The notes under the pieces were generated by a model. The model saw only the letters and a program-made list of their open reading frames with translations. It was not told the DNA's origin and ran no database searches. Below are positions 4,185 through 48,689 of a stretch of 64,000 bases of DNA, piece by piece (within the stretch, counting starts at the first letter, position 1; every line of letters begins with the position of its first letter). Both the position numbers and the translations under genes were made by a program. The DNA comes from Candidatus Saccharimonadales bacterium (GTDB lineage Bacteria > Patescibacteriota > Saccharimonadia > Saccharimonadales > JACQNP01): positions 23,776 to 87,775 of the forward strand of contig JBBSJL010000001.1 in assembly GCA_038257245.1 (NCBI GenBank). The letters are read 5' to 3'.

Positions 4185-5405
4185 GTGTACAAAGAAATAG
4201 AAACTAAATCTGAAAAAAAATCTACATTAATAAAAACTATTGGGTTAACGTTTGCGTTTGCCTTGGTTTTTATTTTTGGACTTAATATTGGCAACGGGAA
4301 AATCAGGGCAGGTGATAGTCTAAAACTTGTTCAAAACAATTCAAATGGTAGTCTTCCAGCTGATCTTGATTATTCGTCAGTAGAATCCCTGTATGATTCA
4401 TTAAAGAAAACTTACGATGGTGATCTTGAGGAAACAAAGCTAATGGATGGTATAAAAAAGGGTCTTGTTGAAGCTTCCGGCGATAAATATACAGAATACC
4501 TAACAACCAAAGAATCTCAGGAATTTGAAGAAAGTCTTAATGGTACTTTTAGCGGTATTGGGGCAGAGCTAAGTAAAGAAGAGAATGCTATTGTAATTGT
4601 CGCACCTATTTCTGGTTTCCCAGCTGAAGAGGCTGGGCTTAGAGCAAAAGACGTTATTATAAAAATAAATGATGAAAACGCATTAGACATATCAGTGTCA
4701 GAAGCCGTTACAAAAATTCGCGGACCAGAGGGAACGAACGTAAAGCTTACAATAGTGCGTGATAGTAAGGAAGAATTAGAGTTTGATATAACTCGTCAAC
4801 AAATAAAAATACCGAGTGTCGAATTCGAAGTCACTGACGATATCGGATATATAAAAATAAGTCGTTTTGCAGAAGATACTGAACAGTTAGCACAAAAGGC
4901 TGCCGAGGAGTTTAAGGCTAACAATGTTGTTGGAATTGTATTGGACCTTCGTAATGACCCAGGCGGCTTACTGGATGCTTCGGTAGATGTCTCTAGTCTT
5001 TGGTTGGACAGAGACAAAGTAGTACTAGAAGAAAAAAGAGGTGGCGAGACGATAAAGACATACAGGTCTAAGGGCGGAAACATTCTTGGTGGAATACCAA
5101 CAGTAGTTTTGATAAATGAAGGTAGTGCCAGCGCAAGCGAAATTACTGCAGGAGCTTTAAGAGATCACGGTGTAGCCATACTAATGGGGCAAAAGTCATT
5201 TGGTAAGGGAAGTGTTCAGCAGGTCACCCCGCTAAATGCTGGGGGCACTCTCAAGGTTACAATCGCCAAATGGTTTACACCTAATGGCAGGAACATAAAT
5301 GAAGAAGGTATAGAGCCAGATCAAAAAGTCGAGATTACTGACGAAAATCTAAAGAACAAACAAGATCCTCAAAAAGACGCTGCATTCGGGTATTTAAAAA
5401 AGTAA
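4185..5405 (+). CDS. ctpA: C-terminal processing (tail-specific) peptidase, S41 family with PDZ domain
   Basis: PDZ segment (GIGAELS...PISGFPAEEAGLRAKDVIIKIND) and S41 core (VVLINEGSASASEITAGALRDHGVAILMGQKSFGKGSVQ). GTG start with GGAGG RBS. Confidence 0.85.
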   Translation: MYKEIETKSEKKSTLIKTIGLTFAFALVFIFGLNIGNGKIRAGDSLKLVQNNSNGSLPADLDYSSVESLYDSLKKTYDGDLEETKLMDGIKKGLVEASGDKYTEYLTTKESQEFEESLNGTFSGIGAELSKEENAIVIVAPISGFPAEEAGLRAKDVIIKINDENALDISVSEAVTKIRGPEGTNVKLTIVRDSKEELEFDITRQQIKIPSVEFEVTDDIGYIKISRFAEDTEQLAQKAAEEFKANNVVGIVLDLRNDPGGLLDASVDVSSLWLDRDKVVLEEKRGGETIKTYRSKGGNILGGIPTVVLINEGSASASEITAGALRDHGVAILMGQKSFGKGSVQQVTPLNAGGTLKVTIAKWFTPNGRNINEEGIEPDQKVEITDENLKNKQDPQKDAAFGYLKK

Positions 5406-5501
5406 CAATATACTAAATAAAATGTTGTGAAAGAGGTAAACCTTATTCCATCCTCGGCATTGTTGTGGTAGTATTTCTTAGTAATAAGAGGTAATAGGTA
5501 G

Positions 5502-7106
5502 GTGGCCAAGCCAACAAAATACGTGTTTGTAACAGGTGGTGTGCTTTCTGGTTTAGGAAAGGGCATCACGGCCGCCTCAATCGGTAACCTGCTTAAAGCC
5601 CGCGGACTCAAAATAAACATTCAAAAATGTGACCCTTACCTTAATGTAGATGCTGGTATGCTAAATCCGGCAGAGCACGGAGAGTGTTTTGTTACCAAGG
5701 ATGGAGCAGAAACTGACCTTGATCTCGGGCATTACGAACGATTTTTAGATCAAGAATTGACCAAAGGTAGCTCTTTGATGAGTGGTCGAATATTATCTAA
5801 GGTAATTGACGACGAAAGAGCCGGTAAATACTCCGGCAAGACTGTTCAATTCATTCCGCATGTTACCAATGCGATCCAAGAAGAAATTATTAAAGTATCA
5901 AAAAACTATGATGTTCATATTGTTGAGATTGGCGGTACAGTTGGAGATTATGAGGGGCTTAATTTCATAGAAGCAATCAGAGAGTTGGCGTTTAAGGTGG
6001 GCAAAGAAAACTGTGCATTTGTTCATGTTGTTTATATGCCTTATCTGGGTGCTAGTCGCGAATTCAAAACCAAACCAGCGCAGAACGCCGTCAGGGAACT
6101 AAGAGGACTTGGTATTTCTCCAGATGTGTTGGTAGTGAGAAGTGAAGAGCAGTCACCCAAGGATGTAGTATCAAAACTAAGTATGTTTTCTGGAGTTGCA
6201 CCCGAAGCAATAGCGCTTTTGCCAAATGCTTCATCAATTTACGAAGTGCCACTAACGTTAGAGGACACAGGTATATCAAGTGTTATTGCTGGGAAGTTGA
6301 ACATCAAAATGTCTAGGCCAAATCTAAAGCAATGGCGAAATGTAGTTGATAGAGCTACAGCTCGTTATAGCAAACGAGTGACTATTGGTGTCGTAGCAAA
6401 ATATATGGATAACCAAGATACATATATGTCGGTGTTTGAGGCTTTGCAGTCTGCTGCTTGGTGGCAAGATACCTCTGTTTCAATTAAATGGATAGATGCC
6501 GAAAAATTGGATAAAAGTTCGAATGGAGTCAGCGATATAATAAATGAGTGCGACGGCATAGTTGTACCGGGTGGATTTGGAACACGGGCTCTTAACGGCA
6601 AGATTAAAGCAGCCCAATATTGTCTCAGGAACAATGTACCATATTTAGGGCTATGCTTGGGGTTACAGATGGGGGTAATTGCCGCAGCTCGTAACGCAGG
6701 TATTTCTGATGCTTCAACCCCAGAGCTGGGAGACAGCTCAAAGAACCTAGTAATAGACACAATGTACGGTCAAAAGGGCAAAGAAAATACTGGCGGGACT
6801 ATGAGGCTCGGTGATTACCCATGTAATATTGAAAAAGGTAGTTTAGTAGAAAAACTCTATGGGACTAAAAATATTACTGAACGACATCGCCACCGTTATG
6901 AGTGTAATAACAAATATACGGGTCAGTACGAAAAATGGGGGCTAAAAGCATCGGGGACTAGTCCAGACGGTAAATTAGTGGAAATTATAGAAGCAATTGA
7001 CCACCCATTTTTTGTTGCTAGTCAGTTCCATCCAGAGTTTAAATCACGTCCAAATAAGTCGCACCCAATGTTCGATGGATTCATAAAATCACTATTGCAA
7101 AAATAA
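5502..7106 (+). CDS. pyrG: CTP synthase
   Basis: N-terminal synthetase motif KYVFVTGGVLSGLGKG and C-terminal GATase (GLCLGLQ, HPEF). 534 aa is the typical length. Confidence 0.95.
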   Translation: MAKPTKYVFVTGGVLSGLGKGITAASIGNLLKARGLKINIQKCDPYLNVDAGMLNPAEHGECFVTKDGAETDLDLGHYERFLDQELTKGSSLMSGRILSKVIDDERAGKYSGKTVQFIPHVTNAIQEEIIKVSKNYDVHIVEIGGTVGDYEGLNFIEAIRELAFKVGKENCAFVHVVYMPYLGASREFKTKPAQNAVRELRGLGISPDVLVVRSEEQSPKDVVSKLSMFSGVAPEAIALLPNASSIYEVPLTLEDTGISSVIAGKLNIKMSRPNLKQWRNVVDRATARYSKRVTIGVVAKYMDNQDTYMSVFEALQSAAWWQDTSVSIKWIDAEKLDKSSNGVSDIINECDGIVVPGGFGTRALNGKIKAAQYCLRNNVPYLGLCLGLQMGVIAAARNAGISDASTPELGDSSKNLVIDTMYGQKGKENTGGTMRLGDYPCNIEKGSLVEKLYGTKNITERHRHRYECNNKYTGQYEKWGLKASGTSPDGKLVEIIEAIDHPFFVASQFHPEFKSRPNKSHPMFDGFIKSLLQK

Positions 7107-7130
7107 GCATTACCTGATAGCATAAGCACT

Positions 7131-7514
7131 ATGGATAACCAAAAACAAAAAAAGATTTTACTAGTAGAAGACGATGACGCACTAGCTAGTGTGTATCAAA
7201 CACGTTTACAAGCAGAAAACTTTGATATTAGGCGGGTGCCGAATGGCGAAGATGCTTTAGCTGCAACCTTAGAATACAAACCAGACCTGATTTTGCTAGA
7301 TGTAATGATGCCTAAAGTTAGTGGATTCGATGTGCTGGATATTTTACGAAATACGCCCGAAACTGCAACAGTTAAGATCATTATGCTAACAGCACTCAGC
7401 CAAGACGCAGATAAAGAGCGTGCTAAGAGCTTGGGTGTAGATGACTATTTAGTGAAATCACAAGTTGTAATCGCCGACGTTGTCGACGTTATAAAACAAC
7501 GTCTTGGAATATAG
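7131..7514 (+). CDS. Stand-alone response regulator receiver (CheY-like), orphan
   Basis: LLVEDDD, phospho-acceptor context DLILLDVMMP and a conserved T/K; no output domain. Strong paralogy with the N-terminus of the 45403-46686 regulator. Confidence 0.8.
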   Translation: MDNQKQKKILLVEDDDALASVYQTRLQAENFDIRRVPNGEDALAATLEYKPDLILLDVMMPKVSGFDVLDILRNTPETATVKIIMLTALSQDADKERAKSLGVDDYLVKSQVVIADVVDVIKQRLGI

Positions 7515-7545
7515 CTCAAAGTAAACCAGTAAAGCCATAAAATCA

Positions 7546-7569
7546 GAGCTCACAAAGGGCTCTTTTTAA
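7546..7569 (+). terminator. Putative weak intrinsic terminator after the orphan response regulator
   Basis: AGAGC-9nt-GCTCT hairpin followed by TTTTT. Confidence 0.35.
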
Positions 7570-7577
7570 TACCAGAT

Positions 7578-7606
7578 TGACAATCTGTAAAAAGTATGCT
7601 ACATTA
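7578..7606 (+). promoter_or_regulatory. Putative sigma-70-like promoter for the Fic operon
   Basis: TTGACA, 17 nt, TACATT about 25 nt upstream of the ATG at 7630. Confidence 0.3.
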
Positions 7607-7629: not shown

Positions 7630-8340
7630 ATGTCAGTAATATCTAGTTCAGAATCATCATTTACGTCTAATGGTAACGAAATCGAACATTCTCGTAATGT
7701 TTTACAACTTGCAGAGTTAAAAGAAATGCTTGGTGCATACGGGTTAGAAGGTGGCAGTCCAAAAGAGAGATTAGATAGTTTGAGAAATCAAAGTAAGGAA
7801 TCACTGGCATTATTTATGACTGACCTAAATGCACGATTAAATGGTTCAGAGGGTAGTCTGGTTCATGAGGACGCTATGAAAATAGGTGATAAGCAAACCG
7901 TTGCACCAGAGGACAGATATGATTTATTTAGTTCTATAGTTGAAAAGGTTAGAAATTGTCCAGAAGATGTAAATCCAGCACGAGTGGGAGACACTTTAGC
8001 ATTGACGACAGTTTTATTACATCCTTATAAAGATGCCAATGGTCGAACCGCTAGAATGTTTGGATATATATTTCGTGATGATATTGATGGTCTAGATGGA
8101 CAAGAAGATTTTAACACTTTAGTTGAACCTCGTGATCAAGCTCGAGAGCGTGGAGGCTTTACGATTAATGGATACATACCATATGTGGGTGAAGGCACAG
8201 ACCAGTCTGATCCCACAGTGGTATCTGGATATGTTGATAAGCTACTTGCGAGTAATGACACAAGTTTGTACACCAGTCCTTATGGACAAGCTGAGCTAAT
8301 CAAGCCACCCGACAATATTCTGCAAGGTGGAGCTGAATAA
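7630..8340 (+). CDS. Fic/Doc (Fido) family protein
   Basis: Core motif HPYKDANGRTARM matches the Fic signature HxFx(D/E)(G/A)NGRxxR. No signal peptide or TM. Confidence 0.7.
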   Translation: MSVISSSESSFTSNGNEIEHSRNVLQLAELKEMLGAYGLEGGSPKERLDSLRNQSKESLALFMTDLNARLNGSEGSLVHEDAMKIGDKQTVAPEDRYDLFSSIVEKVRNCPEDVNPARVGDTLALTTVLLHPYKDANGRTARMFGYIFRDDIDGLDGQEDFNTLVEPRDQARERGGFTINGYIPYVGEGTDQSDPTVVSGYVDKLLASNDTSLYTSPYGQAELIKPPDNILQGGAE

Positions 8341-9332
8341 TGAACCACGAAGTAGTTAGCCTACACGAGGCAGAACATGGTCCTGAAACACAATTGCCAG
8401 CTAACGTTGAGATTATTGATGGTATGTTGACTGAAGAGTTTACTGCAAAGAGGGCAAAGTGGTTGCAAGATCAAATAGAAGGTCAGTATGACCCGCAAAT
8501 GCGACATATAGGAAAGTTGACTGACAGAATAGACCAGACAAGAGCGGAAGGCTTCAGCGCTTACGATAATCAGGATCAAGAAACATATAAAAAGAAAATA
8601 GAAATAGCAAGCCAAACAAAAGAGTATATGTATAAAACTTTTGGTGCTACGAATGTGCGGGAATTCAACAGGTACAAAGAGGCTGAATATAGACAGCAAA
8701 AAATTGGTACAATTGAGTTTTGGGGAGAAGATTCAGATAGGATATTTGATGAAATAGTTGGATGTACTGAAATAATTGACGATGGCATCGATCGTGAGTT
8801 TAGCGTGCCACCGGCTGACAGAGTCGATCCGAAACGAGAGGATTTCCAAGAATATTTAGGTAATAAAATATTTATCGACCATAGTACTTTACAAAATTAT
8901 GTAGAATCAGATACATCTATAGAGTTAGGATATAAAGAGGGTGCGGGTTATAAGATACCGTTGGCAAATATTGTATCAGCAGGAGGCTTTGATAGTTGGG
9001 CTGGTAGGGGCGTCAATGGTCGTAAAGATGGAATGGACGATAAAGATTATCAGAAAAGCTCGGGAGAACAAGTTATTGGTAGGAGTATAGATGCCATAGC
9101 GGACTACGCATTAAGGGAAACAGAAATTCCACCTATTGAAGGAGTTGATGCCTATGTTCAGCCAAATGGTATAGTAATATTTTCTGTCGGTAATTCAAAC
9201 CATAGGATTGCAGCAGCCGTAGCAAGAGGCCAAGAGTTTATCGAAGTAGATGGTATGGTCAGTATACATAAGTTGGGGCAAAATTTAGTTGAAGCCAAGC
9301 AAGATTTGGATAGTGCCGCGGTTGCAGCGTAA
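8340..9332 (+). CDS. Hypothetical protein co-transcribed with the Fic protein
   Basis: ATG overlaps the Fic stop (TAATG). 330 aa, acidic, no recognisable motif. Confidence 0.5.
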   Translation: MNHEVVSLHEAEHGPETQLPANVEIIDGMLTEEFTAKRAKWLQDQIEGQYDPQMRHIGKLTDRIDQTRAEGFSAYDNQDQETYKKKIEIASQTKEYMYKTFGATNVREFNRYKEAEYRQQKIGTIEFWGEDSDRIFDEIVGCTEIIDDGIDREFSVPPADRVDPKREDFQEYLGNKIFIDHSTLQNYVESDTSIELGYKEGAGYKIPLANIVSAGGFDSWAGRGVNGRKDGMDDKDYQKSSGEQVIGRSIDAIADYALRETEIPPIEGVDAYVQPNGIVIFSVGNSNHRIAAAVARGQEFIEVDGMVSIHKLGQNLVEAKQDLDSAAVAA

Positions 9333-9358: not shown

Positions 9359-9631
9359 TTAGTCTACTGTTACTTCGGTGCGGGCAACAGATTTGCCGCT
9401 AAAAAGTCGGACGCGTCTTTGGTTGAAGTTTACAATTCCATCTTTTTTGGCATGAATTGTATAGTTACGGCTCATGAATGTGCCTTTACCGGGTCGCTTA
9501 CTCATACCAGTTTGACGTATGATTACTTGACCTGTTTTTACTTTTTGGCCACCAAATAGCTTAACGCCAAGCCGTTGTCCCGGACTGTCGTGTACGTTTT
9601 TACTCGATCCACCAGCTTTAACTTTTGACAT
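9359..9631 (-). CDS. rpmA: 50S ribosomal protein L27
   Basis: Canonical L27 N-terminus (MSKVKAGGSSKN...GQRLGVK...G) at about 90 aa. Confidence 0.9.
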   Translation of the reverse strand: MSKVKAGGSSKNVHDSPGQRLGVKLFGGQKVKTGQVIIRQTGMSKRPGKGTFMSRNYTIHAKKDGIVNFNQRRVRLFSGKSVARTEVTVD

Positions 9632-48613: not shown

Positions 48614-48689
48614 GGTCCCGTCGTCTAGTGGTTAGGATATCTGGTTCTCATCCAGAAGATCGCGGGTTCGAATCCCGCCGGGATCACCA
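48614..48689 (+). tRNA. tRNA-Glu (anticodon CUC), CCA encoded
   Basis: Manual fold: acceptor GGTCCCG/CGGGATC, D-arm, anticodon stem TCTGG/CCAGA with loop TTCTCAT, T-arm GCGGG-TTCGAAT-CCCGC, discriminator A and CCA. Confidence 0.85.

Follow-up and report, generated by a model that had tools for sequence, protein, structure and literature searches.

Fic enzymes are recognized by the motif HxFx(D/E)(G/A)N(G/K)RxxR (PMC2686095, PMC8097203), and the inhibitory helix that accompanies some of them by the motif (S/T)xxxE(G/N) (PMC8097203). In class I Fic toxin–antitoxin (TA) modules (VbhT-VbhA, FicT-FicA) and in Doc-Phd, a tightly coupled two-gene operon combines a Fic-fold enzyme with a small partner encoded upstream, which supplies the inhibitory motif (Fic) or is Phd (Doc). 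Fic enzymes are common, yet for those that lack the inhibitory glutamate helix, the means of control has been worked out in just a few secreted effectors. Here we describe a two-gene locus from a Candidatus Saccharimonadales bacterium, found in a stretch of 64,000 nucleotides (hereafter the window) of contig JBBSJL010000001.1. Its first open reading frame (ORF), ORF1, encodes a Fic protein. The second, ORF2, belongs to an unannotated protein family whose conserved C-terminal domain probably adopts the ParB/sulfiredoxin (Srx) fold and is closest to Srx. The two families have been joined more than once, as overlapping genes and as single polypeptides, and we favor, with a probability of about 50%, a model in which ORF1 and ORF2 of Saccharimonadales act as a facultative pair of enzyme and accessory subunit. 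The features on which this reading rests are as follows.

7630-8340, + strand: ORF1, a divergent Fic-domain protein of 236 amino acids (aa).
8020-8055, + strand: Fic catalytic motif of ORF1, H131-P-Y-K-D-A-N-G-R-T-A-R142, in the loop between helices 116-130 and 137-146 (placed from the sequence, invariant alignment columns and the secondary structure of the model).
8324-8342, + strand: ORF1/ORF2 junction, a Shine-Dalgarno-like AAGGTGGAG followed by a TAATG overlap (read from the sequence; a related locus, L025, has a TGATG counterpart).
8340-9332, + strand: ORF2, a 330-aa protein of an uncharacterized family.
8400-8756, + strand: N-terminal helical bundle of ORF2 (residues 21-139), from the secondary structure of the AlphaFold2 (AF2) model; variable in the family, alignable only in the closest ∼17 homologues.
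8817-9299, + strand: conserved C-terminal module of ORF2 (residues ∼160-320), the family-wide region, with a probable ParB/sulfiredoxin-like core at ∼204-312.
9195-9230, + strand: ORF2 motif S286-N-H288-R289-I-A-A-A-V-A-R-G297, which hhalign aligns with the nucleotide-phosphate-binding GGCHRYAA of Srx.

ORF1 is a real but divergent Fic protein with a complete catalytic motif and a Fic-like predicted core. The motif, HPYKDANGRTARM, is encoded from position 8020. The search recovered 37 homologues, mostly from Saccharibacteria, with E values no higher than 1e-46; for 29 of these, precomputed Pfam annotation already lists a Fic match. Their alignment has the consensus HPFKDGNGRTAR, and because H131, P132, D135, N137, R139, T140 and R142 are invariant across all 37, the motif in ORF1 is not a chance match. 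The F-to-Y and G-to-A changes within the motif are peculiar to the window protein, save that the Ala in place of the first Gly, which the initial annotation had singled out, also occurs in one other member. Searched by itself against PF02661, the window ORF1 reaches 19 bits, under the gathering score of 24, over a match that spans the motif only; several relatives lie above that cut-off (P0075, 33.3 bits; L011, 29.9 bits; P0133, 28.5 bits). A profile of the family matches human FICD and Caenorhabditis elegans FIC-1 in the PDB at E 6.8e-6 over ∼80 residues, from the flap to the motif. A Fic core is all-helical, holds its motif between helices alpha4 and alpha5, and has a beta-hairpin flap. In the template-free AF2 model (predicted local distance difference test, pLDDT, 91.8), short strands at residues 73-89 precede the two helices that bracket the motif, and all 50 of the top 50 Foldseek matches in the PDB are Fic proteins, with E down to 1.6e-4. 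Family, profile and predicted core thus bear out the initial annotation, which had called ORF1 a Fic protein from its motif.

The AMPylases FICD/HYPE and FIC-1 (PF02661) are the nearest described relatives. They share with ORF1 the HxFx(D/E)(G/A)NGRxxR motif in a loop before a helix, the profile alignment from flap to motif and the best fold matches. ORF1 differs from them in lacking a TPR domain, a transmembrane anchor and an inhibitory Glu helix, in a template modeling (TM) score of only ∼0.3, and in its sub-threshold Pfam score. A regular-expression scan of both proteins and of alignments A1, A2 and A3 found (S/T)xxxE(G/N) in neither ORF1 nor ORF2 and, at any one alignment column, in no more than three sequences, so that the inhibitory helix, for which the initial annotation had suggested looking, is conserved in neither family. 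ORF1 keeps the Gly of NGR, unlike Doc kinases, which have NKR, and nucleoside monophosphate transfer is therefore the default expectation for its chemistry, by analogy with what is established for the family. PADLOC also returned matches to ORF1 (E 0.002-0.05); they span just the 15-20 residues of the motif and are therefore no evidence for a named defense system.

Two further features of the ORF1 family concern its N-terminus. Residues 9-22 (7654-7695) form a strongly conserved segment, 'TTSNGxEIxxPRE', predicted as short beta strands (pLDDT 63-82). Docking of this segment on the Fic flap, as a pseudo-substrate or an auto-modification site, is conceivable. Four homologues (P0008, P0010, P0027 and P0029) carry N-terminal extensions of 40-70 residues that have a 'LQGGLDAAAEFAVNAVTATTGLDAFEAP'-like segment in common.

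ORF2 had been described in the initial annotation as an acidic 330-aa protein with no recognizable domain. Its acidity stands (isoelectric point, pI, 4.65; ORF1 is likewise acidic, with pI 4.5), as does the absence of any significant match in Pfam, NCBIfam, PADLOC or PHROGs. What needs correcting is the picture of a protein without features. An exhaustive HMMER scan placed ORF2 in a family with at least 238 cluster representatives (E<=1e-3; 88 at E<=1e-10); the full scan was needed, as a word-indexed search with the single sequence gave only one homologue. A metagenome scan with a narrower alignment of the family led to one locus. The named members are 'hypothetical protein' entries from Saccharimonadales and Parcubacteria. 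About 17 homologues align with ORF2 over its full length and the remainder only over residues ∼160-320. Within the family, P207, S249 and P264 are invariant, and S219-W220, Q274-P275, G277, H288-R289, A291-293 and G297 are nearly so.

The AF2 model of ORF2 (pLDDT 93.6) consists of a helical bundle at residues 21-139 and an alpha/beta domain at ∼190-330. When the alpha/beta domain was compared with the PDB by Foldseek, human sulfiredoxin took the first 14 places (E down to 1.2e-2, probability up to 0.95), ahead of CTP-bound ParB and KorB. In BFVD, an independent library, proteins named ParB/Sulfiredoxin occupy ranks 1, 3, 4, 5, 11, 14, 17 and 19. At the level of sequence, hhalign aligned a stretch of the ORF2 domain, 'IPPIEGVDAYVQPNGIVIFSVGNSNHRIAAA', with human Srx (P 4.4e-4, probability 33.6%; the Srx query matches 1yzs at 6e-79), pairing 'IPPIEGV...FSVGNSNHRIAAA' of ORF2 with the Srx stretch that starts 'VPPIDVL'. 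In the same alignment, H288-R289-x-A-A lies on C99-H-R-Y-A-A of Srx. In this superfamily the phosphate-binding motif, GGCHR in Srx and GERRxR in ParB, opens the second helix. The His-Arg pair of Srx contacts the ATP phosphates, as seen in Srx structures such as 3cyi, and the hhalign alignment thus places the His-Arg of ORF2 on the phosphate-contacting His-Arg of Srx. The position of the Srx catalytic Cys is occupied by N287 in ORF2 and by Ser in most of the family (GDSHR).

We conclude that the C-terminal domain of ORF2 probably has the ParB/Srx fold, with Srx as its closest described relative, and that ORF2 is neither a sulfiredoxin nor a partition ParB. Sulfiredoxin, an ATP-dependent peroxiredoxin repair enzyme, is the best structural match, and the elements 'PPI(D/E)', 'FS(F/V)G' and 'HRxAA' align between the two; ORF2 differs from it in lacking the Cys of GGCHR, in an inserted GFDSWxGRG loop and hairpin, in a helical N-domain of 140 residues and in having no evident peroxiredoxin context. 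Orphan ParB-like proteins, the SerK/SbnI serine kinases and Tox-ParB toxins possess a small nucleotide-binding alpha/beta domain, often fused to lineage-specific partners (PMC12704722, PMC3482391), which the C-terminal domain of ORF2 probably resembles. Compared with proteins of the ParB-CTPase fold, ORF2 is without a ParB_N match, a GERRxR box, a helix-turn-helix (HTH) or a dimerization domain. The Pfam families HTH_ParB and ParB_C find no match in ORF2, and the protein ends directly after the Srx-like domain. Searches of the PDB and Pfam with sequences of the ORF2 family otherwise returned coiled-coil noise (NPA, myosin, SMC) or single chance matches, and we dismissed the NPA match to ORF2 itself as noise from its helical repeats.

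ORF1 and ORF2 are the only long + strand ORFs at the locus, and they are translationally coupled. The ORF1 stop TAA (8338-8340) and the ORF2 ATG (8340-8342) have one base in common, the TAATG overlap reported in the initial annotation, and AAGGTGGAG (8324-8332) lies 8 bases 5′ of the ORF2 start. A second overlapping pair, in locus L025, has the same gene order and a one-base TGATG overlap, with products 62% (Fic) and 39% (ORF2 homologue) identical to those of the window.

In addition to these two pairs, four members of the ORF2 family also carry an ORF1-type Fic domain, all in uninterrupted ORFs. P0078 (557 aa) has its ORF2-type domain at residues 162-318 and its Fic domain, 64% identical to ORF1, at 338-554. 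The Fic domain of P0133 (497 aa) is 41% identical to ORF1, and four contigs, assembled from separate samples in ENA and JGI, carry this fusion. P0046 and P0075 (544 aa) combine a full-length ORF2-like region with a more divergent Fic domain (29-38%). The fusions have the ORF2-like part before the Fic domain, whereas in the split pairs the Fic gene comes first, a difference that speaks for repeated joining. In an approximate neighbor-joining tree of the Fic domains, a single clade unites the window protein with the L025 protein (pair), P0078 (fusion) and P0002 (alone); P0133 branches off deeply, and the outgroup consists of P0046 and P0075. Within the clade of the window, the partners are drawn from two different ORF2 subgroups, 'GDSHRIAAAILRG' for the ORF2-like part of P0078 and 'NSNHRxAAAIARG' for the window ORF2.

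Two genomes thus have a Fic gene followed by an overlapping ORF2 gene, and at least three lineages encode ORF2-like::Fic in one polypeptide. The joining of two rare families several times, in varied arrangements and with members of different subgroups, makes mere coincidence unlikely; such repeated joining is the classical signature of proteins working together. The initial annotation had proposed that the large downstream gene encodes a dedicated partner of the Fic enzyme and no classical antitoxin, and had reckoned with the chance that the two genes never co-occur in related genomes. The four fusions and the L025 pair show that they do co-occur and back the idea of a dedicated partner; the partnership is facultative, and each gene also occurs alone in the same chromosomal slot.

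That slot lies between a gene for a receiver domain and the gene for ribosomal protein L27. In the window it is framed by the following features.

7131-7514, + strand: receiver gene, a stand-alone CheY-like domain (Pfam Response_reg, E 1.2e-23) and the conserved left border of the variable slot; context only.
7545-7563, + strand: terminator-like hairpin and T-run 3′ of the receiver gene (consensus scan, pattern match only).
7577-7605, + strand: promoter-like TTGACA-17-TACATT with a TG-extended −10 element (consensus scan, 10/12 matches; a candidate site).
9359-9631, - strand: gene for ribosomal protein L27 (from the ORF list; Pfam Ribosomal_L27 in syntenic loci), the conserved right border of the slot; context only.

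These agree with the initial annotation, which had placed the pair next to an orphan CheY-like regulator, after a terminator and behind its own promoter, although both regulatory sites are consensus matches only. Type II Fic/Doc modules have a small antitoxin gene beside the toxin, usually upstream and always present. No such gene lies upstream of ORF1, where the 115-bp spacer holds just the terminator-like and promoter-like sites. Neither ORF1 nor ORF2 encodes a hydrophobic segment, and no signal peptide, transmembrane segment or recognizable secretion or trafficking domain was found in either product, which for ORF1 had already been stated of the signal peptide. The GC content of the two genes (0.39-0.40, against 0.41 for the window) matches that of their neighbors, and base composition thus lends no support to horizontal transfer. 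Of RNA genes, the window yielded only a tRNA-Glu (CTC) at 48614-48689, and Rfam has no family match near ORF1 or ORF2.

Related genomes, which the matches name as Candidatus Saccharibacteria, keep a syntenic order of S41 peptidase, CTP synthase, receiver domain, variable slot, L27 (reverse strand) and THUMP-type methyltransferase. Within this conserved housekeeping synteny, the interval from receiver to L27 (7131-9631 in the window; L001-L029) is a presence/absence hotspot in Saccharimonadales. The sample of slots is biased because the loci were found by searching with ORF1 and ORF2, and it gives no measure of how frequent empty slots are. The slot of the window holds Fic and then ORF2, as does that of L025, where the ORF2 homologue is interrupted by a single in-frame TGA (5056-5058) and the Fic gene is intact. 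A nonsense mutation (TGG to TGA), an error in sequencing or recoding could account for the TGA; P0039 and P0046 have Trp at this position (FDAWDK, HKAWEQ). In other relatives the slot is occupied by a single ORF2-like::Fic polypeptide, namely P0078 in L015 and, after a 146-aa protein of no recognized family, P0133 in L028/29.

Other slots contain different combinations. In L021, the gene after an ORF2-family member (290 aa) encodes a 478-aa protein (5931-7367) with a HEYTH (HExxH) motif and no Pfam match, which suggests that Fic is not the only effector open to the ORF2 family as a partner. In L011, a 502-codon frame (5185-6690) joins an N-terminal domain of ∼270 aa to an ORF1-type Fic domain (A1 hidden Markov model, 2.6e-80). 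The N-terminal domain displays the kinase-like signatures GGGKHSVVY, VRIPK, YDLVMGNLLYD and DIDYG, with sub-threshold Pfam matches to ABC1 (0.041) and OspG_kinase (0.19); it has no similarity to ORF2, which rules it out as a divergent copy. The small genes found in the slots (146, 169, 51, 57, 326 and 44 aa) resemble neither each other nor ORF1 or ORF2, and we rejected them as a third conserved component.

Several observations weigh against a functional pair of a Fic enzyme and a ParB/Srx-fold protein. On the structural side, the fold matches of ORF1 have TM scores of only ∼0.3 in the PDB search. Those of the ORF2 domain are weak, at E 1e-2 or worse with TM scores per target of 0.45-0.52, and the hhalign probability against Srx is just the 33.6% given above. 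Pfam ParB_N (PF02195) matches 0 of 49 ORF2-domain sequences even at E<=10, and hhalign of the domain against five canonical ParB N-domains gave nothing (probability 0.4%). On the genomic side, the ORF1-ORF2 link is facultative and non-obligate. Fusions make up 4 of the 163 ORF2-family proteins in the set examined. Fic stands alone in the slots of L002/3, L004-6 and L026/27, the last of which encodes the closest homologue of ORF1 (66%), so that at least three related lineages carry a lone intact Fic with no ORF2-type domain within ∼5 kb. Conversely, an ORF2-family gene stands alone in L001 and L017/18, and in L024 it occurs without Fic, after an adhesin-like gene (DUF6923 and Big_9) and a 326-aa protein of no recognized family. 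The ORF2-family proteins of Parcubacteria lie in unrelated gene contexts.

These patterns bear directly on the alternatives. If the two genes were unrelated accessory genes that share an insertion hotspot, their overlap would be functionally meaningless, and such a chance neighborhood would accommodate the solitary occurrences of each gene, the unrelated cargo of other slots (the adhesin-like DUF6923/Big_9 gene and the 146-aa and 326-aa proteins) and the fact that most ORF2-family members are unlinked to Fic. We consider it very unlikely, given four in-frame fusions in at least three lineages between families as rare as these two (37 and 238 clusters in billions of proteins) and an overlapping junction kept in L025 despite 62% and 39% identity. 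A closer relation, in which ORF1 is a growth-arresting Fic toxin and ORF2 its downstream, translationally coupled antitoxin or immunity protein, would suit overlapping genes behind their own promoter-like site at a locus that varies between genomes. Many bacterial Fic and Doc proteins are established as TA toxins, for example Fic-1/AntF, and an external inhibitor would make sense for a Fic protein without an internal inhibitory helix. However, the putative toxin persists intact, with no ORF2-type domain within ∼5 kb, in the three or more lineages with a lone Fic, and in L025 it is intact while its partner has an in-frame stop; ORF2-family genes are also found alone or beside a different protein, and ORF2 has no (S/T)xxxE(G/N). 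The architecture is equally awkward. Like class I Fic TA modules and Doc-Phd, the locus is a tightly coupled two-gene operon with a Fic-fold enzyme, but its partner is encoded downstream, is 330 aa long, enzyme-like and free of the motif, unlike FicA, VbhA and Phd, and is dispensable in relatives; ORF1 moreover has NGR where Doc has NKR. The locus therefore fails to show the defining features of either system. Taken together, the lone Fic genes, the L025 stop, the lone ORF2 genes and the missing inhibitory motif fit a strict toxin–antidote relation poorly, which makes it improbable in our estimate and favors an enzyme with an accessory subunit.

Two other readings concern the role of the pair more than its composition. 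The ParB/Srx-like protein might be a nucleoside triphosphate (NTP)-dependent sensor or switch that works with interchangeable effectors against phages or competitors, a special case of the accessory-subunit model. The polymorphism of the receiver-L27 slot between relatives, the HEYTH protein that follows an ORF2-family gene in L021 and the possible kinase-like domain fused to Fic in L011 all point in that direction, and ParB-fold domains are known from toxin and restriction-type systems (PMC3482391; 2026 preprint). PADLOC nevertheless has nothing for ORF2 and only motif-level matches (E 0.002-0.05) for ORF1, mobile-element genes are absent nearby, GC content matches that of the neighbors, the slot is flanked by housekeeping genes, and the HExxH and kinase-like assignments are motif-only or sub-threshold; a dedicated role in conflict or defense thus seems unlikely to us. 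The pair could instead be directed at a host: the epibiont would deliver the Fic protein into the bacterium on which it lives, where it would modify one of that bacterium's proteins, and ORF2 would be its chaperone or co-effector. Secretion as an effector is typical of Fic proteins that have no inhibitory helix, VopS and IbpA among them (PMC8097203), and the family is largely confined to Saccharibacteria at a strain-variable locus. Yet neither protein has a signal peptide, transmembrane segment or secretion or trafficking domain, and no secretion-system genes are adjacent, so that delivery into a host strikes us as a poor prospect.

We therefore return to the facultative enzyme with an accessory subunit, whose mechanism we infer from domain identity and genomic association. 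ORF1 would be a cytoplasmic Fic-type nucleotidyl-transferase, most likely an AMPylase, whose Fic domain would transfer a nucleotide-derived group to a target. The ParB/Srx-like domain of ORF2 may bind a nucleoside triphosphate and, in complex with the Fic domain, could gate the Fic reaction or direct it, as a switch or adaptor under nucleotide control. Alternatively, ORF2 might carry out a second phosphotransfer step on a common target. In either case it would presumably not serve as a neutralizing antitoxin. The kinase-like domain fused to Fic in L011 and the HExxH neighbor of the ORF2 family in L021 are weak indications, and they fit the modular logic of conflict systems, in which a nucleotide-binding partner is combined with an effector. 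A broader conjecture, which we put forward tentatively and regard as somewhat doubtful, is that a ParB/sulfiredoxin-fold nucleotide-binding protein, in trans or in cis, replaces the inhibitory-glutamate helix as the regulator of Fic. The result would be a signaling or conflict module with two nucleotide sites, specific to Saccharibacteria and other bacteria of the candidate phyla radiation, and the same protein family may serve other effectors, for example HExxH proteins.

The link between the Fic enzyme and this new type of partner is solid and, it seems, not yet described; the partner is probably an unannotated branch of the ParB/Srx fold, an assignment that is soft. The partners given in a 2025 survey of the ParB-CTPase fold are HTH, HNH, UPF0020, methyltransferase, CBS, ASCH and DUF3850, and its main text nowhere names Fic; the survey is anchored on PF02195, which the ORF2 family does not match (PMC12704722). 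A catalogue of polymorphic toxins describes ParB-fold toxins and reports no link to Fic (PMC3482391). A search of the full-text literature for Fic together with ParB/Srx, Saccharibacteria or Patescibacteria returned nothing relevant and no published link between Fic and ParB/Srx.

If the proposed relation holds, a Fic protein and a nucleotide-binding-fold partner that occur both split and fused would provide a new and tractable system in which to study how Fic enzymes are regulated or targeted. An unannotated family of at least 238 clusters would thereby gain a first functional context, and the range of ParB/Srx-fold partners, among which Fic is not named in the main text of the 2025 survey (PMC12704722), would be extended. 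Saccharibacteria have very small genomes and live as epibionts, and an enzyme module that is polymorphic and yet stays at one position among their housekeeping genes may plausibly take part in interaction with the host or in conflict with phages.

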